Shown here in pieces: positions 1,152 to 54,813 of a stretch of DNA of 64,000 nt. Source of the DNA: Treponemataceae bacterium (GTDB taxonomy: Bacteria > Spirochaetota > Spirochaetia > Treponematales > Rectinemataceae). The notes below the pieces were generated by a model that ran no database searches, was not told the origin of the DNA, and worked only from the letters and a program-made list of their open reading frames with translations. Each line of letters begins with the position of its first letter. Positions within the stretch are counted from its first letter, which is position 1. A program made the position numbers and the translations under genes. Location of the stretch: positions 768,001 to 832,000 of the forward strand of contig CAXXVZ010000005.1 in NCBI GenBank assembly GCA_963678065.2, written 5' to 3'.

Positions 1152-1285
1152 GTTAGTTGCAGTCGTGACCTTCGAGCGCGCTTGGATGGGGAGACTTGTC
1201 TCTCCATCCAATACTCTATCTTGCGCGCGTTCTTCTCTTCTTCTTCTCTTACCCTTATTTTTTTTCTTTCACGATTGCAACTAAC
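1152..1285. other. ORF-less hairpin cassette (HC) copy 1
   Basis: GCGCGC-TTGGATGGGGAGAC-TT-GTCTCTCCATCCAA-11nt-GCGCGC followed by a pyrimidine tract, between two attC sites. Confidence 0.9.
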
Positions 1286-1503
1286 GTTCGCCTGCCTACG
1301 ACGTTGGCGAGCATCGGCGAGCCACAATGTGCCTGAGCGGAACGAGCGCATGCGAGTGCAGCGATGGCCGAAGAAGGAGCCGCAGGCGACTGATGAGCGT
1401 GGGCAGTGCTGTTAGTTGCTTTTATGACACGTCTTCATCTTCCCATTTTTACCATTTTCTCTTTCTTCATGTTCTATTACCAAATTCTTATCTTCACTAC
1501 CTT

Positions 1504-1534
1504 TTGACTTTTTCTTCATTATAGTATATACTAT
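1504..1534 (+). promoter_or_regulatory. sigma70-like promoter and palindromic operator of the inverted vapBC cassette
   Basis: TTGACT(1504)-17bp-TATACT(1527), with palindrome ATAGTATATACTAT at 1521-1534. Confidence 0.65.
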
Positions 1535-1557
1535 TATATATACTATTGGAGGATGCC

Positions 1558-1788
1558 ATGAATACTGCCAAAATATTTATTAATGGAAGCAGCCAAGCTG
1601 TGCGATTACCAAAAGAATGCAGATTTGATACTGATGATGTCTATGTCAGAAAATTGGATGATATCGTCATTCTTTTGCCAAAAAAGAATCCCTGGGCCTC
1701 TCTTATCAAAAGTCTTGATCATTTTTCTCCCGATTTCTTGAATACTCGTGATCAACCTTCATCTACTCAAGAAAGGGAGATATTCTGA
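1558..1788 (+). CDS. vapB: AbrB/MazE-type VapB antitoxin
   Basis: TAKIFINGSSQAVRLPKECRF motif, GGAGG RBS, overlaps the toxin start. Confidence 0.9.
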   Translation: MNTAKIFINGSSQAVRLPKECRFDTDDVYVRKLDDIVILLPKKNPWASLIKSLDHFSPDFLNTRDQPSSTQEREIF

Positions 1789-2207
1789 TGCTCTATATGC
1801 TGGATACAAATATCTGCATCTATATCATCAAACGAAAGCCTCAGTCAGTTATTGATACGTTTCTAAAACTCACCATTGAAGATGTGTGTATTTCATCAAT
1901 CACCTATGCAGAATTGGAGCATGGAGTATCAAAAAGCGATTTCCCAAAACAGAACAAAATTGCATTGATACAGTTTCTTTCTCCCATTACAATTTTGCCA
2001 TTTGCTGACAGAGCAGCATCAGTATATGGAGATGTACGTTCAAAACTAGAAAAAGCAGGAACACCCATTGGCCCTTTGGATACATTGATTGCGGCACATG
2101 CAGTATCAGAAAACCTGATCCTGGTAACAAACAATACGAAGGAATTTGAACGAGTAGACTATCTGCAGCTTGAGAATTGGGTTTCTTCTCCTCTCTCCGC
2201 GTCATAA
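1788..2207 (+). CDS. vapC: PIN-domain VapC toxin
   Basis: YMLDTNICI...DTLIAAHA...LVTNN. Confidence 0.93.
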   Translation: MLYMLDTNICIYIIKRKPQSVIDTFLKLTIEDVCISSITYAELEHGVSKSDFPKQNKIALIQFLSPITILPFADRAASVYGDVRSKLEKAGTPIGPLDTLIAAHAVSENLILVTNNTKEFERVDYLQLENWVSSPLSAS

Positions 2208-2384
2208 TTGCAACTAACGTTCGCCTGCCTACGACGTTGTGGCGAGCATCGGCGAGCCACAATGTGCCTGAATGGAACGAGCGCAAGCGAGTGGAATGAA
2301 GGCCGAAGAAGGAGCCGAAGGCGACTGATGAGCGTGGGCAGTGCTGTTAGCCGCTGGGCGGATTTTTTCTCCCTACCCCTTCCC

Positions 2385-3020
2385 TTACTCTTTCTTCATT
2401 ACTATTTCCCATACTACTTTTTCTTTTTCATATCGTTTTAATTCTTCCTCACTAATGCTCACTACATTCCAATCAGTTCCAAACAATTCAATAATCTGTT
2501 CTTTCTCAAAAAACCTCTTATTCTCTCCATTGTTTTCATAATAATTTCTCTCTATCTCTCTTCCTTTCCTTGATCCATGATTCACATCATTGATCGAATT
2601 CACTCTACAAAAGAAATATCCTCCATGTTTCAAAACCCTATAAATATCTTTGAGTACTTTTTTTGTTGTTGCCCAATCAAAATAATGGATGGATAAATCT
2701 GCAAGTACCGCATAGGTATAATTATTTGAAAATGGTAATCCATCCCTCATATCAAATAGTCGTGTTTCTACTCCAGGAAATGTATGTTTTATACATTCAA
2801 TTGCAGCAGAAGAATAATCACACGCTATGAGAGAGAAGCCTCTTTCCAGCAGATACTTTGTATTATTCCCAGAACCACATCCAAGATCGATAACAGGATC
2901 ATGTTTCGCAGTATTAAGAAGACCGATATATGCCTCTAGCCAATCATCATACACAACTTCAGTATCGTGTAGACTCAAAAAGTACTCATTCCATTTGTCA
3001 TGTTGCTTATCCAAAAACAT
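2385..3020 (-). CDS. Class I SAM-dependent methyltransferase
   Basis: VIDLGCGSG motif I. Confidence 0.88.
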   Translation of the reverse strand: MFLDKQHDKWNEYFLSLHDTEVVYDDWLEAYIGLLNTAKHDPVIDLGCGSGNNTKYLLERGFSLIACDYSSAAIECIKHTFPGVETRLFDMRDGLPFSNNYTYAVLADLSIHYFDWATTKKVLKDIYRVLKHGGYFFCRVNSINDVNHGSRKGREIERNYYENNGENKRFFEKEQIIELFGTDWNVVSISEEELKRYEKEKVVWEIVMKKE

Positions 3021-3215
3021 CTCCTGATACTTTTTTTCTCAAAAAATCCGACTTGCGGCTAACGTTCGCCTGCCTACGACGTTGTGGCGAGCATCGGCGA
3101 GCCACAATGTGCCTGAGCGGAACGAGCGCATGCGAGTGCAGCGATGGCCGAAGAAGGAGCCGAAAGGCGACTGATGAGCGTGGGCAGTGCTGTTAGGCGC
3201 TGGGCAACAACATAA

Positions 3216-3800
3216 TCATTTGTACAAATGAAGCTTTATTTTATGTAGTAGATTTTTGCCTAAATAATACTTCTGTATTGAGTCAGTTATATCATTTTCG
3301 CTTAATATATACTGATTAGAAAATGGCTTATCCGTAAGCAACTCTTTAAAAGTAAAATGAAAATCTTTTAATTGTTTTGTATCATCCATTAATGCCTTGT
3401 TTTGTATATTGCAAGTTTTTAGGTAATCATCCAAATTGTTGATTTCAATAGAAGCAATTTTAAATATTTTTATAAGAAATCTTTTCTCCGATTCATTAAG
3501 ACTTCTGCCTTTTAATATATCGAAAAATGATATTATTTTTCGATATATTCCTATGATTGAATCAAGACCTAATTGTATAATCTCCACTTTTTTTGCGTGG
3601 CTAGATTCTTTCCCTACCAGCAATATTGTTAAGAAAAATCCAAATATGCAAGTAACCAGTATATTTATAACATCCATAAAGCTATAGTTAAAAAAACTAT
3701 TCGAAACTTGACCCCATTTGCTAGCTGTCACATATGCCATGACTCCAATCAAAATAACTAGAGAGACCATAATAAGAATCTTTTCCTTTCTGTTACTCAT
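3216..3800 (-). CDS. Hypothetical protein with two N-terminal TM helices
   Basis: Two hydrophobic segments in the first ~62 aa. Third gene of a coupled operon. Confidence 0.75.
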   Translation of the reverse strand: MSNRKEKILIMVSLVILIGVMAYVTASKWGQVSNSFFNYSFMDVINILVTCIFGFFLTILLVGKESSHAKKVEIIQLGLDSIIGIYRKIISFFDILKGRSLNESEKRFLIKIFKIASIEINNLDDYLKTCNIQNKALMDDTKQLKDFHFTFKELLTDKPFSNQYILSENDITDSIQKYYLGKNLLHKIKLHLYK

Positions 3801-3801
3801 T

Positions 3802-4116
3802 TTATTCTGCTCGTTTTATATAACTTAAGACTTCTTCTATCAGTAACGGATCTTCATCAGACACAAGATCAATTCTAGATAATATCTTATCACTTCCATA
3901 TCTTCTGGCCAAACCTCCAAATACTTCTTCCAAAAATGCAGTTGAATAGCCTTCCACCCCATCAAGATCTATAAGTATTTTCTCTATATTTACAGTATCC
4001 TCAAAAAGTGGAACAAGAAACGTGTCTCGAAATTCCTCCCCCGAGTATTCTCCATCTCTCGAAAATCTTGCACCCGGTGTTTGTGAAAAATCGCGAGCAA
4101 TACTAATTCGTTTCAT
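3802..4116 (-). CDS. STAS-like domain protein (DUF4325-like)
   Basis: PGARF..DGEYSGEEFR...IDLDGVEGYSTAFLEEVFGGL. Confidence 0.8.
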   Translation of the reverse strand: MKRISIARDFSQTPGARFSRDGEYSGEEFRDTFLVPLFEDTVNIEKILIDLDGVEGYSTAFLEEVFGGLARRYGSDKILSRIDLVSDEDPLLIEEVLSYIKRAE

Positions 4117-5104
4117 CGCAAAACTCCTTAACAAAGTCCCAACAAATTAGCGTACCATGAAATTCAGATTCAATATTTATCACAGTATCAGTATCAACTA
4201 TATACATTCCTTTACGAGATATCACATTCAAGTTTTTTACTAATCCTTGACCTACAAGGTTTTTTATTTTTGGTAAACCTTTCCCTCTATATGGAAGTTT
4301 TGTCTCACTTCTATTTTTTTCCGAGAATGCAGATTTTATTAAGCTTGCATCATCTCCGATAAAATAATCGGGGATTTTTTTTCTAACTGTCGCAGGTATT
4401 CCTCGACCATTATCTAGTAGAGCAAATTGTATTTTTTCGCATTCCTTTTTATACAAAGCCATTAACCACCATCGTTTGCTCTTCATGCCTTCATAAGCAT
4501 GTTCTCTTACATTATTCATTGCTTCCATAATTACAGCATATGTGGCTTTAGTCATCAAGTTTCTTTCAATTTTAAATTTTTCTCTTACATAAGCTAAGAC
4601 AGCACCAGCTTCTGATGAAACAATCATATCATTTGTCCTGATTGATAATACTTCTTCAGTATCATGGTGAGTGTAAGAGCTATTTACATATTTAAAAAAC
4701 CCTGAAGATAAGAATACTTTCTTACAATAATTATCCTTTGGACAATTTCCAGATAACTTGTTTTCTTTATTATTGTGAGAGGCACTATCCATACGTGACA
4801 ACAAATATAAAACAGAATCAGGTGTTATTCTTTCAATATTTAAAAGATTCGCGTATGTTCTTCTTCCATGCCAAGCAGAACTATCTACTTTGTTCAAAAA
4901 TGATATTGTTTCTTCATAGTTTTCAATAATACTGAATACTTTAGGCGCCAGATATTCTTCTCCGACATACTTTCTGAAATTGAAAGTATAATTCTTGCCA
5001 AATCCTGTGATGTGATTTGTTTTAGTTTGTAGCTGAAAAACTGCTTTCTTTGATCTTACTGCATTGAAAGCTTTAAACTTATCACTTTTGTATAATAACT
5101 TCAT
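4103..5104 (-). CDS. GHKL/HATPase-fold protein (anti-sigma kinase-like) with N-terminal STAS-like region
   Basis: N box EAMNNVREHAY, G1 DNGRGIP, G2 RGKGL. Confidence 0.75.
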   Translation of the reverse strand: MKLLYKSDKFKAFNAVRSKKAVFQLQTKTNHITGFGKNYTFNFRKYVGEEYLAPKVFSIIENYEETISFLNKVDSSAWHGRRTYANLLNIERITPDSVLYLLSRMDSASHNNKENKLSGNCPKDNYCKKVFLSSGFFKYVNSSYTHHDTEEVLSIRTNDMIVSSEAGAVLAYVREKFKIERNLMTKATYAVIMEAMNNVREHAYEGMKSKRWWLMALYKKECEKIQFALLDNGRGIPATVRKKIPDYFIGDDASLIKSAFSEKNRSETKLPYRGKGLPKIKNLVGQGLVKNLNVISRKGMYIVDTDTVINIESEFHGTLICWDFVKEFCDETN

Positions 5105-5493
5105 TTTACCAACTTGTATGTTGTTGCCTTGCGCCTAACGTTTTGTGCCTCTGACGTGTGCGACCGCACAGGCGGACGCACATGTGCCTGAGCGGAATGA
5201 GCGCAAGCGAGTGAAGCGATGGCCGAAGAGCCCTGAAAGGGCGATGAGCAGGGGCACGGTGTTAGGCGACGTGTTGTTTTGCGTCTTTTTTGGTAAACTT
5301 TTGTGTGATCTTCATTTCTTTGTTGAGTCGTATATTCTCATAGATTGATAATTTCATCATCCGGTATTCATCTTTTACTATGATATTTGTGATTAACATT
5401 GGCTTAAGCTGGGAGCATCCACCGCGAAGCGGTTGGCGCACTTTTTGCGTGATCTTTTCGCAAAAAGTGTGACAAAGAAGCGACTCAGCTTGA

Positions 5494-7412
5494 GTCGAGT
5501 AGGCCGGGGGATTTTCACCCCCAGCCTCTCACGGAACCGTACGTGATAGTCTCCCATCATACGGCTCTTCACACTTTACCATTGGCATACCATCCGTGCT
5601 CCCAGTGAATGAACAAGTGCTTTTTGCTGTCAGCCGCATTCTTCATGAGTTCGGCGGCCTTCATCCAACTCCTCTTCAGGCGCTTGTATGTGCACTTTGC
5701 CCATTTTACGAGGATTTTCTGGAACATGCAAAAGATACCGTACAATGCCGATGGCCGAAATCTGCCATAATAGGCAAACCATCCTGCAAGCTTCGAGTTG
5801 TATAGCTTCGACAAACTTTCGAGGGTCGCTGTCGCCGCCCTCTGGATTCGCCACGTCCGAATAGTGTCCTTGATCGCCTGCTCGGATGTTTTGCTGATCG
5901 CCGGGGTGAAAGCCACAAAGAGCTTCCCATTCTTCCCCCTCGCCGTGCGCGGCCTGAAGGTGAAGCCGAGAAAGTCAAACGTGGTCCTTTCATATACTCC
6001 CCTGCGGTTCCTATCCTGGCAATACACGATTTTCGTCTTCTCCGGATGTACTGTCAGCTTGCACTCGGCCAAACGCAGTTTGATCTCTTCCAGGAGATTT
6101 TCAGCCTCCGCCTGTGTCCGGCAGTGGATGACGATGTCGTCAGCATAGCGCTCGAAGGGGTTCCCCCCGTGTCTCCGTTCCATCCACGTGTCAAAGGCGT
6201 ACTGCAGAAACAGGTTTGCCAGGAGCGGGCTTATCACCCCGCCCTGTGGCGTTCCCGTATCCCTCTCAAAGATCATTCCCTTGTCGTCTTCTGCCGGGGC
6301 TTTGAGCCATCGCTCGATGTATAACTGAACCCACTCAGGCGGCTTGTGAAACTCCACCGCCTTCATCATGAGTTCCCAATCGATGGCGTCAAAGAACCCC
6401 TTGATGTCCAGATCGATCACCCAGTCATATTTCCAGCACCGTTCCCGTGCTTTCGCCACGGCGTGATGGGCCGATTTCCCAGGACGATACCCAAAGGAAT
6501 CATCATGAAACATCGGCTCCACCATGGGCTCAAAACACAACCGCACGGTCATCTGCGCGATTCGATCCGCAACAGTCGGTATTCCCAACGGTCGCGTTCC
6601 TCCGCTCTTCTTCGGAATCTCCACCCTCCGCACCGACTGTGGATGGTAGCTGCCAGAGGACATCCGATTCCAGAGCTTGTAGAGATTCTTCGAGAGATTC
6701 CCGTCAAACTTCTCAAGCGTCTGTCCATCGATCCCCGCCGCCCCATCGTTCGCCCGTACACGCTGGTATGCCTTCCATACGAGTCGCTTCGGTATGTCAA
6801 ACGGTTTTGCCTTTCCCATCCGTTCATCCTGTCGCCAGTTGGCGTTCAGAAAAGACACGAGTATGTCGGCCCCTTCGCTCCATTCCCGTTACAGGAACTT
6901 CATCACTACTACGAGCCGGCGCCATCCTGGCGACGTCCCTGTGCTCCGCATCGGTACTCTCCCTCTCGTCGGGTTCGCCGCTTGAGGTTCTCCCTTCACA
7001 TCGGAACGACAGGTTCCCACGTTCCATACAACAGCCCAGTATCAATTCACGCCGCCTTAATGCCGGAGGCCGTCCACCCAGTACACAGGTTTCCCGATGG
7101 ACTCTTTTCACAGCGCACTAGCTAATCACTGCTTTTGACCTCATCAAACTCACTTTCGACACCTCATCGGTCGGTTCACTTTCGTTCGCCTCCTGATACC
7201 ACACCTGACCCCGTCATGCGGGGGCCTTTTAACCAGATACGTTCACCACCGGGACTCTTTATCCAAGCAGCTTCTGGCGGTTTGAGACCGGCTCCTGCAA
7301 GCAGATCCCGAGGCTCACACCAGCTACCCCGGTGTTTCCTCATCTGTCGTACAGCTCTTATGACACCTCCTGAATCACTATTCAAAAGTGCCCATCAGAT
7401 TTCGTGGCACAC
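5494..7412 (-). mobile_element. Group II intron, RmInt1-like (bacterial class D, IIB)
   Basis: 5' end GTGTG at 7412. Domain V GAGCCGTATGATGGGAGACTATCACGTACGGTTC. Domain VI ends CCTACTCGAC at 5494. Internal RT ORF. Confidence 0.9.
5569..6819 (-). CDS. ltrA: Group II intron reverse transcriptase/maturase, no endonuclease domain
   Basis: RPLGIPTVADR, GTPQGGVISPLLAN, RYADD. N-terminal KPFDIPKRLVW/LYKLWNRMSSGSY resembles RmInt1-type proteins. Confidence 0.93.
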   Translation of the reverse strand: MGKAKPFDIPKRLVWKAYQRVRANDGAAGIDGQTLEKFDGNLSKNLYKLWNRMSSGSYHPQSVRRVEIPKKSGGTRPLGIPTVADRIAQMTVRLCFEPMVEPMFHDDSFGYRPGKSAHHAVAKARERCWKYDWVIDLDIKGFFDAIDWELMMKAVEFHKPPEWVQLYIERWLKAPAEDDKGMIFERDTGTPQGGVISPLLANLFLQYAFDTWMERRHGGNPFERYADDIVIHCRTQAEAENLLEEIKLRLAECKLTVHPEKTKIVYCQDRNRRGVYERTTFDFLGFTFRPRTARGKNGKLFVAFTPAISKTSEQAIKDTIRTWRIQRAATATLESLSKLYNSKLAGWFAYYGRFRPSALYGIFCMFQKILVKWAKCTYKRLKRSWMKAAELMKNAADSKKHLFIHWEHGWYANGKV

Positions 7413-7439
7413 AGCAGTTGTTAGGTGCTTCCGTTTTAT

Positions 7440-26464: not shown

Positions 26465-26596
26465 GTTAGTTGCAGTCGTGACCTTCGAGCGCGCTTGGAT
26501 GGGGAGACTTGTCTCCTCATCCAATGCTATATCTTGCGCGCGTTCTTCTCTTCCTCTTCTCTTACCCTTATTTTTTCTTTCACGATTGCAACTAAC
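26465..26596. other. ORF-less hairpin cassette copy 2
   Basis: Near-identical to 1152-1285. Confidence 0.9.
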
Positions 26597-27563: not shown

Positions 27564-27695
27564 GTTAGTTGCAGTCGTGACCTTCGAGCGCGCTTGGATG
27601 GGGAGACTTGTCTCCTCATCCAATGCTATATCTTGCGCGCGTTCTTCTCTTCCTCTTCTCTTACCCTTATTTTTTCTTTCACGATTGCAACTAAC
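27564..27695. other. ORF-less hairpin cassette copy 3
   Basis: Near-identical to 1152-1285. Confidence 0.9.
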
Positions 27696-28732: not shown

Positions 28733-29512
28733 TCAGCCGGTGGGTAATTGTGCCTGGCCTTTCTGCCGCATGAGTGCGTGTTTCATCCGGTAGCTTTCAC
28801 CTTCGAAGAGAATAATGTGACCATGGTGGGCAAGCCTGTCGATCATGGCGGCAGCCATCTGATCGTCCGTGAAGATTGTCCCCCATTTGGAGAATTCAAG
28901 ATTGGTCGTGAGAATAACGCTTCGGCGCTCATAGGAATCGGAAATTATCCTGAACAGGAGCTGGGCTCCTTGCCGGTCGACGGGGACATAGCCCCATTCG
29001 TCTATGATCAAGAGATCAGCCCGAGCGATGGACATAACAAGCCGCTCAAGCGAGCCTTCCTTAAGGGCTTCGGAAAGCCTTACCACCAGCTCTGCAGCGG
29101 TAAAGAACCTGGTACGGAAGGTGCGAGAGCACGCGGTGACGCCAAGGGCTGTGGCAAGATGTGTCTTTCCAGTTCCAACGGGGCCGTAAAGCACCAAGTT
29201 TTTCTTCTCGGCGACGAACTGGGTGGTCATCATTTCCTGTTTCGAAAGCGCCGGCGGCAGCTTCACGCAGGAGAAATCAAAGCCCTCGAAGGTTTTGTAG
29301 ACGGGGAAGGCCGCTTCATGAAGGAATCGTGCCCTGCGGACATCGTCGCGGTTAGCCATCTCTCGCTTCAGGATCTTCAGGAGAAACTCTTCCTGGGGTG
29401 CCTTGGCCTCTTCCTCGCAGATCTTTACCGCGGTCTGGCTGAAGGCCATCTTGCGCAGCAGTACGGAGATTTCGCTGCGCAGTTCGGCACGATTGACACG
29501 CGCTTTTCTCAT
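28733..29512 (-). CDS. istB: IS21 helper ATPase
   Basis: GPVGTGKT, IIDEWGY, IDRLAHH. Confidence 0.93.
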   Translation of the reverse strand: MRKARVNRAELRSEISVLLRKMAFSQTAVKICEEEAKAPQEEFLLKILKREMANRDDVRRARFLHEAAFPVYKTFEGFDFSCVKLPPALSKQEMMTTQFVAEKKNLVLYGPVGTGKTHLATALGVTACSRTFRTRFFTAAELVVRLSEALKEGSLERLVMSIARADLLIIDEWGYVPVDRQGAQLLFRIISDSYERRSVILTTNLEFSKWGTIFTDDQMAAAMIDRLAHHGHIILFEGESYRMKHALMRQKGQAQLPTG

Positions 29513-30981
29513 GACACGGTCTCCGAGTTGCTCATGAGGGCGCGATCGTAGGCTCCGAGGTCGGGTCCCTCGGAGGGAATGCCGTGAAGCCCATCAAAGG
29601 CGACCCTGGAAGCAACCGCGCTAAGGCTGAAACTGTCCAGCCGGCCTCGGGCAATCGCTTCCTCAAGCGAGGTCATGGCGACGTCGAACCCAAAGGTCGT
29701 ACTGCTTTTCACCAGGACTTTCAGCACATTGCGCAGATCAGGCTTTGAGAGTTCGTCCATCGCGACTCGTATGGTATCGTCAACGCCTGCCCTAAAGGCG
29801 CTATTGATCCATGCGCCAGGCTTCTTCATGAGGGTTTCAAGGCTTGTTCGGTAATCGCAGCTGTCGCTCCGCTCGTCGCCATAGACTCTTCGGTGGACAC
29901 ACAACGGGGTTCCTTCGCTGCGGTACACGACGAGTTCATGCGCCTTGAGCCCTACGGTCACTTCGCTGTTCCCGCATTCGGGAGCGCTTGAATACCAATG
30001 CTTTCCGTCAATGCAGAACTTTCCGTAGCCATCCGTGGATACTCGCTCGAAACGCTCGACGATGAAGCTTCGCACCGGCAAAAGCCCTAAAGACTGCCGC
30101 TCCTCTTCGAACAACTCGGCAATATTCTGATTTTTCTTGTAATGCGATCGGTCATGATCTTTCGCCGCTTTTTCGAGCAATTCCTTGTTCCAAGACTCGA
30201 GGCTGTCCACAACCGGCAGAGGAACGAAGAAGTTCCTTCTCGCATAGCCGATCTTGTTTTCGACATTCCCTTTCTCATGGCCTGAAGCAGGGTTGCAGAA
30301 GCTGACCGCAAAGCCATAGTGGCATTTGAACCGAAGGAAAAGCTGGCTCAAGGTGACACGGTCGCGGACCCGTCTGCCTACGCCCGTTGCGTTGTCGAAC
30401 ACGATCCTGGCGGGAACGCCACCTATGTGGCTGAATATATCTTTGAGCCCCTGGGAAACACATTCGGCCGTCTCGCCGCTGAAACACTGCGTAAAGCCCG
30501 CATTGCTGAAGGGAAAGGTCAAGGTCAGGTATTTGACGGTCCTTCGAACGCCGGCCTCGATCAGTTCTGCCTCTCCGAAATCGGCCTGCGCCTCGCCTTT
30601 CGACCAGACGAGCTCAAGAAACCCCTCCGCTTCTTTCCTGGCCGCTTTCCGCCGTTTGACATAGCGCTGGACCAAAGGATATGAGCAGTCGTAGTCGTCG
30701 GGGTGTTCTTCCAGAAGCCTTGTATGGATCCTCATGGCCCTATGGCGCTGCTTGAAACGCATCTTCAGGTCTTCGGCAAGCCATTGATCGATGGTTGGCT
30801 TCCATCGATCAAGTTTCGAGGGAAGCTCGCGGGGCACTTCGGTAGAGGCGTTGAAGTCCTCCTGCTTCATATACTTCGCTGTTGTTTTTCGATCGATTCC
30901 CAGCCGTTCAGCGATCTCGCAGGGACCATAGCCCTGCCTTTGCAAATCTTTGACGTGATCAATCTGGTTCATGTGGAGCAT
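29509..30981 (-). CDS. istA: IS21 transposase
   Basis: AQADFG, VFDN, EKGNVEN. Confidence 0.93.
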   Translation of the reverse strand: MLHMNQIDHVKDLQRQGYGPCEIAERLGIDRKTTAKYMKQEDFNASTEVPRELPSKLDRWKPTIDQWLAEDLKMRFKQRHRAMRIHTRLLEEHPDDYDCSYPLVQRYVKRRKAARKEAEGFLELVWSKGEAQADFGEAELIEAGVRRTVKYLTLTFPFSNAGFTQCFSGETAECVSQGLKDIFSHIGGVPARIVFDNATGVGRRVRDRVTLSQLFLRFKCHYGFAVSFCNPASGHEKGNVENKIGYARRNFFVPLPVVDSLESWNKELLEKAAKDHDRSHYKKNQNIAELFEEERQSLGLLPVRSFIVERFERVSTDGYGKFCIDGKHWYSSAPECGNSEVTVGLKAHELVVYRSEGTPLCVHRRVYGDERSDSCDYRTSLETLMKKPGAWINSAFRAGVDDTIRVAMDELSKPDLRNVLKVLVKSSTTFGFDVAMTSLEEAIARGRLDSFSLSAVASRVAFDGLHGIPSEGPDLGAYDRALMSNSETVS

Positions 30982-31146
30982 TCCCTCCTCCCTGCTGGAT
31001 AAATCCTACAGGGTTTTCATCGCCACTTCCTCCCCACGATTTTTATGGGGAATTCTGACGATTTTTCTGTCCATTCCAGTTTGATCTTTTCGGGTATTTC
31101 TAGATTACGCTACACAAGCCTGCGACCGATGAGCGTGAACAGCGCT

Positions 31147-31278
31147 GTTAGTTGCAGTCGTGACCTTCGAGCGCGCTTGGATGGGGAGACTTGTCTCCCC
31201 ATCCAATGCTATATCTTGCGCGCGTTCTTCTCTTCCTCTTCTCTTACCCTTATTTTTTTTTTCACGATTGCAACTAAC
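31147..31278. other. ORF-less hairpin cassette copy 4
   Basis: Perfect 14-bp stem variant. Confidence 0.9.
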
Positions 31279-33659: not shown

Positions 33660-34001
33660 TTAGGGGCGACACTTCTCTACCAAATTTTCTATCTTTTTCT
33701 TAAGCTCGGGGATCTTTGAAACAGCAACGTCCCATACCAAGGAATAATCAACCGAAAAATAGCCATGTATTAGCTTGTCTCTCATCCCTGCCATATTTCT
33801 CCATTCTATTTCTTTGTTATTTAGTACTATTTCATTACTCAGGTTTTTGACTGCTTCTCCAATAATTTCCAAACATCGGGCAAAAGCCCGTTTCAATGTT
33901 TCATTTTTCAAAAACTCTTCTTTCGTTATTCCTTGCGTATGTTCTACCATAAAATCCATTTCATCTTGTATATGGAAAAGTAATTCTATGTCAGAACGCA
34001 T
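33660..34001 (-). CDS. HepT/DUF86 HEPN ribonuclease
   Basis: LEIIGEAVK...GMRDKLIHGYF. Confidence 0.9.
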   Translation of the reverse strand: MRSDIELLFHIQDEMDFMVEHTQGITKEEFLKNETLKRAFARCLEIIGEAVKNLSNEIVLNNKEIEWRNMAGMRDKLIHGYFSVDYSLVWDVAVSKIPELKKKIENLVEKCRP

Positions 34002-34296
34002 AATATTCTACCTCATTCAATATATGAGGTCCAATATACGGACTCAATGATTCTGGTGTTATCACATCCACTTTTCTATTCGTATTATCCTCTATAAAAT
34101 ACGTTAATCCTATATAGTTATCATAATTCTTCTTTTCAGGATCAAATTCCACAAGAAGATCTATATCACTTTTTTCTTTTTGGTCATTTCTGACAAAAGA
34201 GCCAAATAGACCGATCTTAGTAACTCCATATCTTTTAATGAGATATTTATTGTCGATGAAAAAGTCTATCAAGTCTTTTTTTGTTGCTACAGTCAT
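33991..34296 (-). CDS. MNT nucleotidyltransferase antitoxin
   Basis: GLFGSFVRN...SDIDLLVEF. Confidence 0.9.
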   Translation of the reverse strand: MTVATKKDLIDFFIDNKYLIKRYGVTKIGLFGSFVRNDQKEKSDIDLLVEFDPEKKNYDNYIGLTYFIEDNTNRKVDVITPESLSPYIGPHILNEVEYYAF

Positions 34297-36588: not shown

Positions 36589-36726
36589 GTTAGCTACAGT
36601 CGTGTTCTTCAGCGCGCTTTGATTTTCGGACTGGATGTCCGAAAATCAAATCAGTGACATCTTGCGCGCCTCTTACTCTTCTCTTAACCCTTATTTCTTT
36701 CTTCTCTTTACACGATTGTAGCTAAC
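36589..36726. other. Divergent ORF-less hairpin cassette, variant 2
   Basis: GCGCGC-TTTGATTTTCGGAC-TGGAT-GTCCGAAAATCAAA-13nt-GCGCGC followed by a pyrimidine tract. Confidence 0.88.
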
Positions 36727-36852: not shown

Positions 36853-36986
36853 GTTAGTTGCAGTCGTGACCTTCGAGCGCGCTTGGATGGGGAGACTTGT
36901 CTCCTCATCCAATACTCTATCTTGCGCGCGTTCTTCTCTTCCTCTTCTCTTAACCCTTATTTTTTTCTTTCACGATTGCAACTAAC
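36853..36986. other. ORF-less hairpin cassette copy 5
   Basis: Near-identical to copy 1. Confidence 0.9.
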
Positions 36987-43920: not shown

Positions 43921-43926
43921 ATAATT

Positions 43927-45391: not shown

Positions 45392-45524
45392 GTTAGTTGC
45401 AGTCGTGACCTTCGAGCGCGCTTGGATGGGGAGACTTGTCTCCCCGTCCAATACTATATCTTGCGCGCGTTCTTCTCTTCCTCTTCTCTTACCCCTATTT
45501 TTTTCTTTCACGATTGCAACTAAC
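45392..45524. other. ORF-less hairpin cassette copy 6
   Basis: Stem variant GTCTCCCCGTCCAA (T-G wobble). Confidence 0.9.
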
Positions 45525-45651: not shown

Positions 45652-46264
45652 GTTATGTGCTGTGTTTTTGGGGCACACCCTGTTTCTTCTCTTCATTTCT
45701 ATAATTCTTATTCCTTTACTCTTAACCCTTTATCTTTGCATTTTAATACTTTATTCAGATACATACGCACTTTATTTCTCTATACCATAGTTATTTATTT
45801 ACTTTGACAGTGCCTCTTTTCTTATATCCTACTACCTATATATTTTATCCTTAAATTCATATTTACGTTTTCGACTATTATAGTTCAGTACATGTTTTTC
45901 GATGTTTCCAATTCAAAAATCTACCATTTTTACTCATAAACCATATAGTAATAATGCCACTACTCAATATGTTTCTATACTTCAAAAATCACATTTTTTA
46001 GATTCAAATAGTTCATGAGAAAAACAGCAGCATCTTCGAAAGGCGTTTTGAAATCTATGATAATCCTATACCCAGAAATCCTATTTTTTATCTATACCAT
46101 TTTTGTACTGCATATACTACCAACACTGAATATAGCACTGATCCACAATTACTACAGAATTGTGTATAAACCCAATATCAGAAGATTCTATTTTTGAATG
46201 CTCTGACGTCATTCAGAATCATATGGTTTCGCACGAGATCCGCCCCAAAAACATTGCAACTAAC
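45652..46264. other. Long AT-rich ORF-less cassette
   Basis: About 610 bp between attC sites with no credible ORF. Confidence 0.75.
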
Positions 46265-46388
46265 GTTCTGCCTGTTTGCGACGATGGCGTGAGCATCGGC
46301 GAACGCCATTGTGCCTGAGCGGAATGAGCAGAGCGAGTGCAGCGATGGCCGAAGAGGGAGCCTGCGACCGATGAGCGTGAACAGCGCT

Positions 46389-47293
46389 GTTAGTTGCAGT
46401 CGTGACCTTCGAGCGCGCTTGGATGGGGAGACTTGTCTCTCCATCCAATACTCTATCTTGCGCGCGTTCTTCTCTTCCTCTTCTCTTACCTCTATTTTTT
46501 TCTTTCACGATTGCAACTAACGTTTGTGCCTCTGACGTTTCGGACCGCATCGGCGGGACGAAATGTGCCTGAGCGGAATGAGCGAATGCGAGTGTAGCGA
46601 TGGCCGAAGAGGGAGCCTGCGACCGATGAGCGTGAACAGCGCTGTTAGTTGCAGTCGTGACCTTCGAGCGCGCTTGGATGGGGAGACTTGTCTCCTCATC
46701 CAATACTCTATCTTGCGCGCGTTCTTCTCTTCCTCTTCTCTTACCCTTATTTTTTTCTTTCACGATTGCAACTAACGTTCTGCCTGTTTGCGACGATGGC
46801 GTGAGCATCGGCGAACGCCATTGTGCCTGAGCGGAATGAGCGTATGCGAGTGCAGCGAAGGCCGAAGAGGGAGCCTGCGACCGATGAGCGTGAACAGCGC
46901 TGTTAGTTGCAGTCGTGACCTTCGAGCGCGCTTGGATGGGGAGACTTGTCTCCCCATCCAATACTCTATCTTGCGCGCGTTCTTCTCTTCCTCTTCTCTC
47001 TTACCCTTATTTTTTTCTTTCACGATTGCAACTAACGTTCTGCCTGTTTGCGACGATGGCGTGAGCATCGGCGAACGCCATTGTGCCTGAGCGGAATGAG
47101 CGATAGCGAGTGCAGCGATGGCCGAAGAGGGAGCTTGCGACCGATGAGCGTGAACAGCGCTGTTAGTTGCAGTCGTGACCTTCGAGCGCGCTTGGATGGG
47201 GAGACTTGTCTCCCCATCCAATACTCTATCTTGCGCGCGTTCTTCTCTTCCTCTTCTCTTACCCTTATTTTTTCTTTCACGATTGCAACTAAC
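46389..47293. repeat. Tandem block of four ORF-less hairpin cassettes (copies 7-10: 46389-46521, 46644-46776, 46902-47036, 47162-47293)
   Basis: Unit of about 257 bp (HC + attC). Confidence 0.92.
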
Positions 47294-47471
47294 GTTCTGC
47301 CTGTTTACGACGATGACGCGAGCATCGGCGAGCGCCATTGTGCCTGAGCGGAATGAGCAAAGCGAGTGCAGCGATGGCCGAGGAGTCGCCAGCTTCGCTG
47401 GCGGCGACGAGCAGGGGCACGGTGTTAGATGATGTTGGGCACCCTCTTCATATATATTACTTTGCTTTTTC

Positions 47472-48212
47472 TTATATCTTCTTTCTATACCAATATCTAT
47501 ATCGTTCTTCAAATCCTAATTTTGTATACAGATTCTTTGCTATAGTATTATGTGCTAGTACCTGTAAATAGGCAGTTTTAACATCCATTTCTTGTGCTGT
47601 TCCTAAAATCCCTAAAACCATCTCTTTCCCTATACCTTTTCCCCTCATCATCTCATCGACAACAATATCAAATATTCCAACATATCCATGTTCTAAAGCT
47701 CCAAATCCACATCCAATCAGTACATCATTACTTTTCTTACTGACGATTATTGTATCCAGTTTTATGTTATGCAACATTGTACTCAATACTTTATGATACT
47801 TTGGATCTATTTTATTACAGGATTCAAAACCCTTCTCCCACTCTTCATGGAATTCATGTTCTATAATTACGGTTGATTCATGGTCATGGTTTATTGATCC
47901 AAGATTTTTTGTCATAACTATCGTTTCATCAAGACGAGTATAGTTTCTCGTATCAAGAATATTCTCAATTTCAGGTTGTGTATAATCTTCTATTAGCTTA
48001 AAAACGACTGGTAGATCCTGATGTTCATAAACTGTTTCGCAAAAACTTATTTTTTCTTCAAGATCAATTGTTGACGGATACAGAGGATTTATAGAATTAG
48101 CACGTTTGGTATATCCATCAGAAAATCGTAGAATCCAACCATCGTACAATCGTGTTTGTAATGAGGGCCAGGCATTCATTGATAATTCTTCAATAATTTG
48201 CTGCACAGGCAT
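47472..48212 (-). CDS. GNAT acetyltransferase
   Basis: GWILRF..GYTKRANS, RGKGIG, AYLQV...N..A..LY.KLGF. Confidence 0.88.
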   Translation of the reverse strand: MPVQQIIEELSMNAWPSLQTRLYDGWILRFSDGYTKRANSINPLYPSTIDLEEKISFCETVYEHQDLPVVFKLIEDYTQPEIENILDTRNYTRLDETIVMTKNLGSINHDHESTVIIEHEFHEEWEKGFESCNKIDPKYHKVLSTMLHNIKLDTIIVSKKSNDVLIGCGFGALEHGYVGIFDIVVDEMMRGKGIGKEMVLGILGTAQEMDVKTAYLQVLAHNTIAKNLYTKLGFEERYRYWYRKKI

Positions 48213-48378
48213 ATGAAAAATCTCCTCTTTCTCGGGTGCCCAATTTCATCTAACGTTCTGCCTGTTTGCGACGATGGCGCGAGCATCGGCGAGCGCCATT
48301 GTGCCTGAGCGGAATGAGCAAAGCGAGTGCAGCGATGGCCGAAGAGGGAGCCTGCGACCGATGAGCGTGAACAGCGCT

Positions 48379-48510
48379 GTTAGTTGCAGTCGTGACCTTC
48401 GAGCGCGCTTGGATGGGGAGACTTGTCTCCCCATCCAATACTATATCTTGCGCGCGTTCTTCTCTTCCTCTTCTCTTACCCTTATTTTTTCTTTCACGAT
48501 TGCAACTAAC
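48379..48510. other. ORF-less hairpin cassette copy 11
   Basis: Near-identical to copy 1. Confidence 0.9.
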
Positions 48511-48637
48511 GTATGCCTGCCTACGACGTTTTGGCCCGCATCGGCGGGACAAAATGTGTCTGAGCGAAATGAGCGAATGCGAGTGGAGCGAAGACCGAAG
48601 AAGGAGCCGAAGGCGACTGATGAGCGCGGGCAGCGCT

Positions 48638-48775
48638 GTTATATGCTGTCGCGATCTTGGTTTAGCGCACTGAAAGATGGTGGCTGGATGCCACCATTTT
48701 TCAAGTAACATCCTGTGCGCGTTCTTTCTTTATCTCCTCTTCACTTTAGATACATTCCTCGCGATTGCATATAAC
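48638..48775. other. Divergent ORF-less hairpin cassette, variant 3
   Basis: GCGCAC-TGAAAGATGGTGGC-TGGAT-GCCACCATTTTTCA-11nt-GTGCGC followed by a pyrimidine tract. Confidence 0.85.
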
Positions 48776-48948
48776 GTTCGCCTGCCTACGACGTTGTGGC
48801 GAGCATCGGCGAGCCACAATGTGCCCGAGCGGAATGAGCGCATGCGAGTGTAGCGATGGCCGAAGAAGGAGCCGACAGGCGACTGATGAGCGTGGGCAGT
48901 GCTGTTAGGCGTAGTTATTTCCATCTTCATTCATTTATTCTACCCTAT

Positions 48949-50025: not shown

Positions 50026-51333
50026 GGCATCGCGCCAAAATAATTTGACTGCTTTTATTCTTTAGTCGGAAGCAAAGCATAGTTCCAATCGCCATGGAAT
50101 TTTGCCTGCTTAATGTTCAGGGCAGCAAGTTCTTCATCACTAACCTTGATCCCGAGTGGATACGAACCTGAATCCAATTCTGCGCATATTTTCAGTCCCG
50201 CTGCAGTGGTTGTATTTGCAATCAATTGAATAATTACCTCGTGGCTAATCAACGGTCGGCCTCGCCAGTTCTGAGTGATATGGCAAAACATTCGGTGCTC
50301 GATTTTATTCCATTTGCTGGTACCTGGTGGAAAGTGACACACGTGAATTGACATTCCAAGCTGATTCGCTAATTCGTGCAATGCAAGTTTCCAGAGCCGA
50401 CATCGACTACCGTTGCTGCCACCACCATCAGCGGTAATCAGCAATTCTTTTGCAGTACGATACCGTTTCACACCCATTTTTTCCCACCAACGTCGGATGG
50501 CTTCGGCAGCAAAATGTGCGGTATCGTGGTCGATTCCTACACTGACCCAGCCCTTGTTTTCGCTTATATCGAAGACTCCGTATGGTATGGCCTTGCCCAG
50601 CTCTGTATCAATGAAGTCATGAACCATTACAGATTCCGGTTCACCTTTGGGACGCCATTCTCGTCCTCCATTTCGAAATTCCCCAATCAATTCTTTCTTT
50701 TTCGTATCTACCGAGATAACTGGATTCCCTTTACGCTGAAACCGCTTGACCATGGTGTTGATATACTCAAACTGCGCATTTCGATCCGGATGCGACGTTC
50801 CTTCTTTGGTCTTCCGATTGCTCTGTAGACTGTAGCCTTCCGCGTTCAGTAGCCGTCCAACCGTGCGCGGGCTTACTGTGTGCCCTTGTCGTGTAAGCGT
50901 ATCTGCAAGATTACTGGTGCTCAGGCACGTCCACTGTAGTGGCGACTCTGGATCACCCCGTGTCATTGGTTCAATTAAGCTCGTAAGTTTTTCCCTTAAC
51001 TCGGGATCGTTTTCACTGCATCGTTTTCTTCCACCGCCTGGGAAACGTACGCGAGTGCGTATCTTCTCGTGCGGATTACTTTCGCGTAATGCCAGCTCAT
51101 TCATTCCTTTGCGTATTGTGTTCGGCGACATCTTAATCGCGGTATTGACTGCCTGTATCCCACCACGACCATACGCTCTTGCTTCAGCCGCCGCCCATTG
51201 ACGTCGCATTCGTTCATCCATCATGGGCACAAGTGCGTTGTACTTGGAAGCTATTTGTTTTACCGTTGCCTGATCTTGCATACTTCATTATAATATAATC
51301 AATATATTAGTCAAGTTATTTTGACGCATTGCC
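50026..51333 (-). mobile_element. ISAzo13-family IS, copy 2
   Basis: Same TIRs, DR TAA. Confidence 0.92.
50055..51281 (-). CDS. ISAzo13-family transposase
   Basis: Identical to copy 1. Confidence 0.93.
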   Translation of the reverse strand: MQDQATVKQIASKYNALVPMMDERMRRQWAAAEARAYGRGGIQAVNTAIKMSPNTIRKGMNELALRESNPHEKIRTRVRFPGGGRKRCSENDPELREKLTSLIEPMTRGDPESPLQWTCLSTSNLADTLTRQGHTVSPRTVGRLLNAEGYSLQSNRKTKEGTSHPDRNAQFEYINTMVKRFQRKGNPVISVDTKKKELIGEFRNGGREWRPKGEPESVMVHDFIDTELGKAIPYGVFDISENKGWVSVGIDHDTAHFAAEAIRRWWEKMGVKRYRTAKELLITADGGGSNGSRCRLWKLALHELANQLGMSIHVCHFPPGTSKWNKIEHRMFCHITQNWRGRPLISHEVIIQLIANTTTAAGLKICAELDSGSYPLGIKVSDEELAALNIKQAKFHGDWNYALLPTKE

Positions 51334-51878
51334 TAATTGCTTGAATGGATTCTTTTCCAAATCCCTTATGTTGATCCTTTTTCCCTATTGTATACCCAAT
51401 CTCACATTGCTGATTTTCTGGATCTATAAAATGAATTCCAATATCTCCAATAATTATATCTTCATAATAGATCCCAATCTAAAACCAAGTATTCACAACA
51501 TTGAAAAACAGGGAGCTATTTTTAATAAATGCTTCAACATCATTGATGGATTTTGGTTTGAAGGACTGAAACTCCATACTTGAAGGATCAGATCGGTATT
51601 CAAACATTTTTAGAGAATCTTCCAGAACAATATCTTTCAACACCAAACGGTTTGTCAGAATGTTAATATAACCCATCGCCTTTTCCCTGATCTCGCGTGT
51701 TCAAATTTCAGATAACGTTCGCCTGCCTACGACGTTATCCTGGCGCTAACCGAGCGCCAGGATAATGTTCCGCAGCGAAGCGGCAGCTGAGCGGAGGATG
51801 AGGAGCGCACGCGACGATATGTGGGCAGGTTGTTAGCTGAAGGTTTTGGTCTTTCTTCTTTCTCTTTCGTTAATATTT

Positions 51879-52265
51879 TTAACTTCTATACTGTTTGAAA
51901 TCGATTATTTTGCTCATTAACTCAAAGTGTTTGTCCAGACTATACAACTCCAAATCATTATCTCGGACATTTTGAACAAGTATCAAATCTGGTATCCCTA
52001 CCCTATTTATTCCATTTTTTAGATTCTTTTCCTGAAACCGTATTATTTCTTCCCACCCTATTCCCAATTCTATTTTCCTGATACTTTTTAAAAACCCTAT
52101 TAACTCATTCTCTTTCTTTACCCTTAAGAAGGGTAGTATTTCTGCAAGAATCAAATCATTGATACATATCTGATTTTGATCAATCAATTCATCCAGAATA
52201 ATGACACTTTGACTACCTCGAAAATAGTCGATCCAGACTGAAGAATCCACAAGAATGTTTTTCAT
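51879..52265 (-). CDS. vapC: PIN/VapC toxin
   Basis: LVDSSVWIDYF...PDLIL...SLDKHF. Confidence 0.88.
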   Translation of the reverse strand: MKNILVDSSVWIDYFRGSQSVIILDELIDQNQICINDLILAEILPFLRVKKENELIGFLKSIRKIELGIGWEEIIRFQEKNLKNGINRVGIPDLILVQNVRDNDLELYSLDKHFELMSKIIDFKQYRS

Positions 52266-52453
52266 CTTTTTCTTATATCATCAAGATTTATATCAAGATT
52301 AATCTTACCATAATACTTCTTGATACCTTTGATCTTTTCTCTTTGAATAATATTCTCAAGAGCTGTTTTGATGAGATCGGTCTTCGTTTTCAATTTCGTC
52401 AAAGCCAGAGCTTCTGACACAAGGCTTTCAGGAAGATCCAAAGTGGTTCTCAT
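52262..52453 (-). CDS. vapB: VapB antitoxin
   Basis: MRTTLDLPE.LV.EA. Confidence 0.83.
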   Translation of the reverse strand: MRTTLDLPESLVSEALALTKLKTKTDLIKTALENIIQREKIKGIKKYYGKINLDINLDDIRKR

Positions 52454-52675
52454 ACGATACACTCCATATATGCATATACTAGTCATATACTATATGCACT
52501 GTCAAGCGAATCCTGTATTTTTCTCCTCTTCACCAAAACTTTCAGCTAACGTTCTGCCTGTTTGCGACGATGGCGTGAGCATCGGCGAGCGCCATTGTGC
52601 CTGAGCGGAATGAGCGTATGCGAGTGGAGCGATGGCCGAAGAGGGAGCTTGCGACCGATGAGCGTGAACAGCGCT

Positions 52676-52807
52676 GTTAGTTGCAGTCGTGACCTTCGAG
52701 CGCGCTTGGATGGGGAGACTTGTCTCCTCATCCAATACTCTATCTTGCGCGCGTTCTTCTCTTCCTCTTCTCTTACCCTTATTTTTTCTTTCACGATTGC
52801 AACTAAC
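52676..52807. other. ORF-less hairpin cassette copy 12
   Basis: Near-identical to copy 1. Confidence 0.9.
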
Positions 52808-52933
52808 GTTTCCGGCCTGCGACGTTTGCGACCGCATCGGCGGGCGCAAATGTGTCTGAATGGAACGAGCGGATGCGAGTGCAATGAAGGCCGAAGAAGG
52901 AGCCAAAGGCGACTGATGAGCGTGGGCCGCGGT

Positions 52934-53440
52934 GTTATCTGCTTTGTTTTTGGGGCTCATCCATTTCCTTTTCTTCATTTAAAAAACTTTTCTTTTTTAC
53001 TTCTTCAATCTTACCCTTATATACTATATTTATATATTTTATACAGATGTCGAATATTTTAATTATCTATATTATAGTTATTTAGTGGTTTTTCTCATCA
53101 AATATTTTATTATTATATTTTAAGTCCATGATTTTGTATAATAAGTATATATTACAGTATTAACCAATACTCTAAATTTCAATATTTATAATTTTTATCC
53201 AACAATAAGATCAGCTTTGAAAGATCCTTATCTTCTCCTGGAATCCCATATTCAAGAATCCCATATTCAAGAATTTTAAATTCATAATCCCTAACATTTC
53301 AGAAGCTACATATTTTCCCAAGAGATCAATACTGGATTAACAAAATATCTGGAATCTATGATTCTAGTTTTTAACAATTTGTCGTCATTCAGAATAACAA
53401 TGTTCAACAAAAGATCCGCCCCAAAAATATTGCAGATAAC
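52934..53440. other. Long AT-rich ORF-less cassette related to 45652-46264
   Basis: Shared ends TTTTTGGGGC / GTCATTCAGAAT...AGATCCGCCCCAAAAA, and a 15-bp tandem duplication at 53241-53270. Confidence 0.75.
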
Positions 53441-53569
53441 GTTTGCCTGCCTACGACGTTGTGGCGAGCATCGGCGAGCCACAATGTGCCTGAATGGAGC
53501 GAGCGTATGCGAGTGGAATGAAGGCCGAAGAAGGAGCCGATAGGCGACTGATGAGCGTGGGCAGTGCTG

Positions 53570-53989
53570 TTAGATGAAGTTTGCGCGATCTTTTACTAGT
53601 TCCAAATATTCATTTACTCTACATATCTTTATGGTTCTAAATTCTTTTAATACCAACAAATCATCATCACCAGTCACAATATATTTAACGTTTCCTTCAC
53701 AAGCACATTCTAATATTTTATCATCATTATGATCTCGACATTGATTTTTCACTATTCCAGAAATTACTACAATCTTTGCTATGTCTTCTATGGCTTTTAC
53801 ATAATATTCTATATTGTAATTTTCTATTTTGAACTTTGGTCTTTTCAGTACAGTACATAATTCTTCAAGTATTTCTCTTGAAGTAAACAACTCATCTATT
53901 CCTTCAATACTTCTCTCAAGCACTCTTCGAGGATTCCCGCCCCAGAAAAATGCAGAAATGAAGATATTCGTATCCAGGACAACTTTCAT
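53570..53989 (-). CDS. PIN family putative toxin
   Basis: VVLDTNIFISA...CRD..DDKILECA...IVTGD.DLL. Confidence 0.9.
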   Translation of the reverse strand: MKVVLDTNIFISAFFWGGNPRRVLERSIEGIDELFTSREILEELCTVLKRPKFKIENYNIEYYVKAIEDIAKIVVISGIVKNQCRDHNDDKILECACEGNVKYIVTGDDDLLVLKEFRTIKICRVNEYLELVKDRANFI

Positions 53990-54225
53990 TTTTTGTTCCG
54001 GGCACTTTTAATCTCTTTCATGATATCTTCCTCCAACACAGCAAGTTTCGGAGCGATGCTTTCACCGTACGAAAAAATACTTTGCCAGCGTTGTTTTTTC
54101 TCAATATACATTCTGGCAGCTTCTCGTATTAATTCAGACCGGGAACGAGCTTCATTCTGTGCAATTTTGTCTATTTGTTGCAAAAGATCCTCTTGAAACG
54201 ATATATTTACGGTTGATACTGCCAT
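53986..54225 (-). CDS. CopG/RHH antitoxin
   Basis: VNISF...LL..ID..A....RSRSELIREA. Confidence 0.85.
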   Translation of the reverse strand: MAVSTVNISFQEDLLQQIDKIAQNEARSRSELIREAARMYIEKKQRWQSIFSYGESIAPKLAVLEEDIMKEIKSARNKK

Positions 54226-54422
54226 AATTTTCTCCTATCAATAATATACAATCTTTGTATATTGGAATCAATACTCCTCGCGCAAATTTCATCTAACGTT
54301 CTGCCTGTTTGCGACGATGGCGTGAGCATCGGCGAACGCCATTGTGCCTGAGCGGAATGAGCGACAGCGAGTGCAGCGATGGCCGAAGAGGGAGCCTGCG
54401 ACCGATGAGCGTGAACAGCGCT

Positions 54423-54813
54423 GTTAGTTGCAGTCGTGACCTTCGAGCGCGCTTGGATGGGGAGACTTGTCTCCCCATCCAATACTCTATCTTGCGCGCG
54501 TTCTTCTCTTCCTCTTCTCTTACCCTTTTTATTTTCTTTCACGATTGCAACTAACGTTCTGCCTGTTTGCGACGATGGCGTGAGCATCGGCGAACGCCAT
54601 TGTGCCTGAGCGGAATGAGCAAAGCGAGTGTAGCGATGGCCGAAGAGGGAGCCTGCGACCGATGAGCGTGAACAGCGCTGTTAGTTGCAGTCGTGACCTT
54701 CGAGCGCGCTTGGATGGGGAGACTTGTCTCTCCATCCAATACTCTATCTTGCGCGCGTTCTTCTCTTCTTCTTCTCTTACCCTTATTTTTTTTCTTTCAC
54801 GATTGCAACTAAC
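54423..54813. repeat. Two tandem ORF-less hairpin cassettes (copies 13-14: 54423-54555, 54680-54813)
   Basis: Near-identical to copy 1. Confidence 0.9.

Follow-up and report, generated by a model that had tools for sequence, protein, structure and literature searches.

The stretch of DNA analysed here (the window; 64,000 nucleotides, positions 768,001 to 832,000 of contig CAXXVZ010000005.1, Treponemataceae bacterium assembly GCA_963678065.2) is the middle part of an integron-like cassette array that spans about 754.6–931.6 kb of its contig (contig C5 of genome G000), and this report concerns a short gene-free cassette, here called the mini, which is repeated throughout it. The array holds 166 attC-like sites under a strict parse and 170–178 arms under looser parses, with 52–55 arms counted in the window, and its cassettes all read on the minus strand of the window. 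The gene cassettes comprise toxin-antitoxin (TA) pairs, acetyltransferases and unknowns, with several insertion sequence (IS) insertions among them.

The mini accounts for about a third of the 170–178 cassettes. The genome contains 56 copies (52 of type A, one of type B and three of type C), all inside this one array and in one orientation, with none elsewhere in the genome; the next commonest cassette end in the array is repeated seven times. Mini bodies are 128–138 bp long and carry no conserved open reading frame (ORF), a read-through frame being present in types A and C only. By its borders, i.e., a GTT core, an AAC inverse core and an attC at the 3' end, the mini is a gene-less integron cassette. 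Its cassette sense is the minus strand, while its fold is drawn on the plus strand, which is the bottom strand. A previous sequence-only reading of the window had described the family as nearly always accompanied by its own attC subtype, and this is borne out for type A: 51 of the 52 copies carry one subtype, whose 51 sites all have a type A body next to them, and which is absent from types B and C.

Sixteen units lie in the window, at the positions and with the layout given in that reading, and a pattern built on the layout returns 16 matches in the window and none in 100 shuffles. The estimate that about 16 of roughly 54 cassettes belong to the family likewise agrees with the number of arms in the window, the genome total being larger. 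All bodies are on the minus strand. Type A is found at 1152..1285 (with its own attC-like site of the type A subtype at 1024..1155, minus strand), 26465..26596, 27564..27695, 31147..31278 (its own attC is shortened beside an IS21-type element with istB at 28733-29512), 36853..36986, 45392..45524, 46389..46521 (an end member of a run of four non-identical copies), 46644..46776 (its own attC has the left half of another subtype), 46902..47036 (which has a perfect hairpin and serves as the reference for anatomy; own attC-like site at 46773..46905, minus strand), 47162..47293, 48379..48510 (one of five identical units), 52676..52807, 54423..54555 and 54680..54813 (an IS21-type element cuts the attC on its right). 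The genome's only type B body is at 36589..36726, and one of the three type C bodies is at 48638..48775.

On the plus strand the mini has three stems, an outer one of 17 bp, a basal one of 6 bp and a 14-bp hairpin; the two-stem structure originally proposed is thus present in both its stems, but the outer stem had been missed. In the reference copy the left arm of the outer stem (46902..46918, 17 nt, the R'' side, with a G at position 11 opposite a T) is followed by the left arm of the basal stem (46926..46931), the 14-bp hairpin (46932..46961), a one-sided 11-nt bulge ending ATCYT (46962..46972), the right arm of the basal stem (46973..46978), an unpaired pyrimidine tract (46979..47019) that is 92% C+T in its commonest form and purine-rich on the sense strand, and the right arm of the outer stem (47020..47036, 17 nt, the R' side with the crossover triplet), all on the plus strand. 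The hairpin loop has 5 nt in types B and C and 2 nt in type A, where it is closed by the 14th pair; folding programs draw type A with 13 bp and a 4-nt loop. The junction of bulge, stem and tract (46962-46990) looks like two inner ends of ordinary cassettes fused together, and TCT/ATCT motifs are frequent directly inside both end arms of ordinary cassettes (37 and 41 of 77).

The outer stem is formed by the two ends of the cassette and is generic to the cassettes of the array. Among 80 non-redundant end pairs 76 are self-complementary, mostly to position 20–23, and the four that do not pair are mostly bodies fused through a missed attC. Across the array this end pairing spans 17–25 positions, often with T·T at position 10, and in 66 of the 76 complementary end pairs bottom-strand position 11 is a G·T. 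Relatives have end stems as well (34 of 35 cassettes in genome G327 and 6 of 6 in G051, counted among cassettes that were detected by their pairing; also at L037, L041 and L052). In classical attC sites the end pairing extends to 9–11 nt (PMC2727003), and a G·T bias is a mark of the attC bottom strand (PMC5027507). A literature search, which covered few subscription papers, gave no description of 20-bp cassette-specific end stems. The R box and the 9-bp inner attC stem of the mini's attC-like site also fold on the plus strand. The plus strand is the likely folded strand; the chief reason is the G·T found at end-stem position 11 throughout the array, rather than the polymorphisms of the inner stems.

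For the inner fold itself the earlier claim was that stem sequence changes while pairing is kept. This holds for 10 of the 14 hairpin pairs, which change on both sides, along with 1 of 6 basal and 5 of 17 outer pairs, giving 16 of 37 in total, a value reached by none of 500 shuffles; the alignment had nine rows (seven A, one B, one C) and its structure was derived from the same sequences. The covariation comes from three lineages of one genome, a fourth lineage not having been found. The type C copy at C5:841252 adds a further paired change in the hairpin beside an uncorrected G·T, and another in the outer stem. Among the 52 type A copies substitutions vary 4 of 74 paired against about 10 of 58 unpaired positions (p=0.044; substitution columns only, indel columns excluded). 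Stem length, the basal 6-bp stem across the bulge and the ATCYT motif are conserved, and bodies fold far better than their shuffles on either strand, as DNA or RNA (z from -7 to -11 on the plus strand and from -6 to -8.7 on the minus strand). The paired changes and the lower variability of paired positions lend some support to the fold being under selection.

The second half of that claim, that the selection acts on the plus strand, was argued from every stem polymorphism being a G·T wobble on that strand. This is so in the window, but genome-wide there are only three independent G·T alleles in the inner stems (present in 26, 9 and 1 copies), and at G000:C5:864372, outside the window, one copy has A·C instead. 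A bias test gives p=0.63 for 3 of 4 alleles and p=0.38 for 4 of 5 when type C is included, and as a strand argument the inner-stem wobble is weak. Isolated bodies folded as DNA differ between strands by -0.4 to 2.5 kcal/mol, type B folding slightly better on the minus strand (-29.0 vs -28.6 kcal/mol), whereas whole excised-circle models favour the bottom strand by 6–8.5 kcal/mol in 4 of 4 cases.

At the head of the array lies a gene for a tyrosine recombinase of 393 residues (G000:C5:931895-933076, equivalent to L005:1183-2364; minus strand, like the cassettes). With TIGR02249 it reaches 197 bits, below the cut-off of 265 and with the match split in two pieces, is about 41 residues shorter than the canonical IntI on contig C3 (L001) of the same genome, and is missing the IntI-specific insertion. 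The canonical IntI comes with a cassette of its own, whose attC is of a different type. The array platform therefore falls outside the canonical integrases, defined by the IntI-specific insertion and a pass on TIGR02249.

The placement of the minis indicates that they move. The first cassette after attI is a type A mini, and in a string of 170 cassettes containing 54 of the 56 minis the counts of neighbours were close to expectation (mini beside mini 20 vs 16.8; mini upstream of TA 9 vs 9.2; downstream of TA 8 vs 9.2), with mini-mini, mini-TA and mini-other neighbours all within the range of 10,000 permutations (lowest one-sided P 0.17). Adjacent type A units are identical in none of 15 pairs and their median distance is 10, the same as for 1,210 non-adjacent pairs, while five identical units are spread over 90 kb, between 816 and 906 kb. 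Since adjacent copies are never identical and identical units lie far apart, local tandem duplication was ruled out in favour of dispersal. With its varied neighbours and a copy in first position after attI the mini shows mobility as a unit, and the pattern is the one expected from repeated excision and re-insertion of body plus attC. The attC at 46507-46647 is a hybrid, with the left half of one subtype and the right half of the type A subtype, which suggests recombination within attC.

We found no fourth type in species genomes, metagenomes, viral contigs, plasmid and phage collections (no mini match of any type in the last two), 68 genomes of the family or 400 of the order; most relatives are fragmented assemblies, and the absence holds for those searched. 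A covariance model (R1), the kind of search that the sequence-only reading had proposed, returned nothing in four genomes of a related genus and one match in 68 family genomes (E=0.024) that by eye is not a homologue. The layout pattern gave 19 matches in metagenomes, all by chance as judged from fold and context except a contig (L071) with a near-identical type A pair in the same attC context; it gave six in species genomes, all chance on the same grounds, and a single chance match in viral contigs, where the pattern used was too narrow and missed type A. A short-cassette pattern run on 400 genomes of the order found 56 cassettes in the source genome and 2/400 elsewhere, neither with the mini fold. 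In G327 (G327:C1, base 33942-34105, joined from L052 and L106) there is a single gene-free cassette of 164 bp with an end stem, a short hairpin and a long bottom-strand pyrimidine tract, which we regard as an analogue of the mini, homology not being implied.

Part of the stretch is present in 20 sequencing runs from 11 studies, including lake-water and groundwater samples, and contigs of three metatranscriptomes cover parts of the mini. In one sample with both libraries the mini contig had a depth of 19 in RNA against 4–18 for contigs of single-copy genes, and of 42 against 2–6 in DNA. Nothing in these depths points to an abundant RNA, but such a measure neither ranks genes nor tells strands apart, and short RNAs are lost from it; it was not used as evidence.

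Our leading account, which we hold tentatively, is that the mini multiplies selfishly or near-neutrally as a single-stranded circle of about 260 bases, excised and re-inserted at attI by the recombinase of the array. The selfish minimal cassette, or single-stranded DNA circle, is also the best fit among the options first listed for this family. The bottom (plus) strand would leave as a circle while the original stays, as in the copy-and-paste by semi-conservative excision shown for class 1 integrons (PMC8024014). In the circle the 17-bp cassette ends, a stem common to the array's cassettes, would extend the attC hairpin into a ready substrate. The weakest step is the last, in which the inner stem of 6+14 bp would be kept because it makes the loop between the ends shorter and leaves little open single strand; such a compact circle would close quickly and resist nucleases and single-strand binding protein, compaction with fast closure being the likeliest role of the inner stem. 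Short cassettes have been reported to show more excision where a flanking site folds poorly (PMC5371416).

Folding of circles and arrays was modelled at equilibrium without protein. In 16 gene-cassette circles the median R-box probability fell from 0.99 to 0.08 after one scramble each of the end extension. In linear context the native interior closes the mini ends with P 0.76–1.0 in 4 of 4 cases, against more than 0.7 in 6 of 16 shuffled interiors. Several points weigh against the selfish circle. In circles of types A and B most interior shuffles keep the R box, i.e., the inner stem is not required in the model, and the native type C circle reaches an R-box score of only 0.13. Within the linear array end closure is predicted to compete with both flanking R boxes and could hinder excision. 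Type B folds as well as type A and yet is single-copy. Conservation of the bulge motif and of the basal-stem sequence hints at a ligand for which the selfish model has no name, and a contig looping from the end of the body to the start of the attC fits tandem copies as well as a circle. Finally, because the array-head recombinase has no IntI insertion, a single-strand pathway for the mini is an extrapolation.

A fuller form of the same idea would make the mini a viroid-like DNA parasite, a non-coding single-stranded rod of 260 bases that is copied and pasted by the host recombinase, has come to occupy a third of the array, closes its ends in the chromosome so as to lock neighbouring recombination sites and has its bulged stem read by a protein; we consider this combination unlikely.

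Of comparable standing, and so also doubtful, is that the inner fold acts as RNA, either as a plus-strand (antisense) small RNA (sRNA) or as a Rho-loading attenuator whose unpaired C/T tract stops antisense transcription. RNAs that bind proteins typically combine a bulge of conserved sequence with a stem free to change, as the mini does. Its plus-strand RNA folds 1.7–5.8 kcal/mol better than the minus strand in 3 of 3 types, 51 of the 55 unpaired plus-strand bases of a type A copy are C or T, rho is present in the genome, and a precedent for an sRNA cassette exists in sRNA-Xcc1 (as cited in PMC6557892 and PMC8876359). However, ordinary cassettes often have pyrimidine-rich plus-strand flanks too (inside the left arm the median is 72%), there is no positional tie to the promoter-carrying TA cassettes, and a trans-acting RNA would not need 52 copies. 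Neither strand of 46250-47420 has an intrinsic terminator (a hairpin followed immediately by a T run; 0 sites) or a sigma-70 site. Over the whole window Rfam 15 at gathering score matched only a group II intron, which lies with its reverse transcriptase gene inside the array at 5494-7316 on the minus strand, and a permissive scan of 46380-48800 gave weak eukaryotic matches far below threshold. A match to Rfam or to the repetitive extragenic palindromic (REP) families, which the sequence-only reading had named as speaking against it, was thus not found, there being no copies outside the array. In two other genomes a GC-rich hairpin followed by a T-rich stretch, resembling an antisense terminator, occurs on the bottom strand at cassette 3' ends (L133:834-944 and L150:1374-1484).

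It is less likely that the mini is a lock on the array, whose short-range end closure sequesters neighbouring R boxes, slows the loss of cassettes and so benefits the host. Minis border 87 of 169 array junctions, and when only local pairing is allowed the R box exceeds 0.1 at 2 of 20 sites beside minis vs 8 of 18 beside gene cassettes. A similar contrast (none of 66 sites flanked by one mini, compared with 39% of the 79 that have no mini beside them) is biased, since the stretch that was folded did not include the ordinary partners. At full equilibrium, however, there is no R-box difference between minis and gene cassettes, since ordinary cassettes close their ends too (median 0.995), and mini-mini junctions fold well (median 0.90). 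Placement of the minis is no more even than random, and the wide separation of identical units means that minis move.

Lower again we place the reading that the inner stem has no function, the palindrome being kept perfect by template switching or gene conversion and the cassette amplifying only through its shortness. Quasi-palindrome correction yields paired changes without selection and could have given those seen here, which come from three lineages only; the inner fold is also dispensable for the R box of the modelled circle. Yet the constancy of stem length, basal stem and ATCYT motif would go unexplained, the type C copy at C5:841252 has its paired change next to a G·T that was left uncorrected, and two G·T alleles rose to 26 and 9 copies, A·C remaining at one.

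A translation coupler resembling ORF-11, in which an ATG in the mini opens a frame through the attC and hands ribosomes to the next cassette, is more improbable still. In 47 of 50 type A copies the frame stays open through the attC of the same unit, types A and C have it in common, a purine-rich leader precedes it on the sense strand, and in 20 of 52 copies (one of which starts with ACG) it stops at a TAG formed by positions 3–5 of the next core site, where ORF-11 likewise ends (PMC8876359). A second frame is nevertheless open in 46 of 50 type A copies, so that nothing marks out the ATG frame by its openness; indels of one base in attC put the stop at scattered positions, type B stops after four codons, one type C copy has ATA, and the type A ATG sits within the 20-bp stem.

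That the mini is a promoter cassette of the sort found among gene-less cassettes in Treponema and Vibrionaceae is very improbable: promoter cassettes are proven elsewhere (PMC6557892, PMC11014356) and a mini copy is first in the array, but a scan limited to sigma-70 found no such site in four tandem copies (46250-47420), minis are not enriched upstream of non-TA cassettes, and the body is GC-rich, structured and about one third the size of Vibrionaceae promoter cassettes. Better candidates are provided by a second ORF-less class in the array, AT-rich cassettes of 500–630 bp with at least seven related ends (window 45652-46264 and 52934-53440; C5:841517 and 914193).

Other candidates were rejected. 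A decoy sequestering CsrA fails because the GGA loop occurs only in types B and C and the 99.9% complete genome has no match to PF02599, a model that detected 3 of 14 controls. MITEs (miniature inverted-repeat transposable elements) and REP or bacterial interspersed mosaic element (BIME) repeats are short, palindromic, non-autonomous and multi-copy, but the mini has no copy outside the array and no target duplication, and attC core sites of one array bound each of the 56 copies. The stem arms have no exact matches elsewhere in the genome, which also removes a role as IS ends or guides. Motifs expected of an IS91/HUH link (CTTG or GTTC) or of a retron are not present in all types, and no such gene adjoins the copies. 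Terminator, promoter, CsrA decoy and known RNA family thus found no support.

Several features of the surroundings should be recorded. IS21-type elements at 28733-31120 and 54880-57241 of the window cut the attC sites next to two type A copies, and transposases of ISAzo13, ISL3 and IS5/IS4 type recur within the array. Cassettes elsewhere encode a streptomycin adenylyltransferase family protein (L125:13283-14134, minus strand), a BsuBI/PstI restriction enzyme (L125:2948-3886, minus strand), a TIR-domain protein (L128:5757-6818, minus strand) and a Schlafen AlbA_2 protein (L128:16752-17588, minus strand).

Compared with known systems, the mini comes closest in its working to a non-autonomous passenger, copied and pasted by an integron-like system, as the selfish circle would have it. 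With classical integron attC sites and circles it shares the GTT/AAC core, a bottom-strand fold biased towards G·T, and probably copy-and-paste duplication (PMC2727003, PMC5027507, PMC8024014); unlike them, its array has end pairing over 17–25 positions with a fixed G·T at 11, in place of 9–11 nt, and an adjacent recombinase without the IntI insertion. The paralogous non-coding cassettes of Vibrio are similarly gene-free, highly repeated and conserved over their whole length, one family having 45 copies in V. vulnificus CMCP6 (Boucher et al. 2006, PMC1382264). The mini differs from these in its body of 128–138 bp taken up almost wholly by a covarying fold, the available text of PMC1382264 having no match for 'secondary structure', and in its array type, with no sequence link apparent between the two. 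Promoter cassettes of Vibrionaceae and Treponema are comparable in having no ORF, their own attC and large arrays (PMC11014356, PMC6557892), and those of Treponema also in their reverse-integron context, but the Vibrionaceae bodies are 335–515 bp long and contain promoters, the mini being a third of that with no sigma-70 match; the 500–630 bp AT-rich cassettes fit this class better. The sRNA-Xcc1 cassette of Xanthomonas is also non-coding and may act through RNA (via citations in PMC6557892 and PMC8876359), whereas for the mini no expression, promoter or sequence link to it is apparent. No description of the mini family emerged from the literature search, in which few subscription papers were covered and supplements may list similar short cassettes. 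The claim of novelty thus stands for the family and not for the kind: the mini is a real, undescribed, structured family within the known kind of paralogous non-coding cassettes.

Why large arrays hold so many repeated non-coding cassettes has been a question since at least 2006, and PMC1382264 offers both readings, a selfish element or one useful to the integron. Were the mini neutral, it would be just one more paralogous non-coding cassette. It is, however, small enough to synthesise, exists in three natural stem variants at a copy ratio of 52:1:3 and has a private attC subtype, so that selfish, lock and RNA models are separable by stem-breaking and compensatory mutants. For an integron-like recombinase that has no IntI insertion and acts on cassettes with long, cassette-specific end stems, the mini would also be the smallest substrate found in nature.

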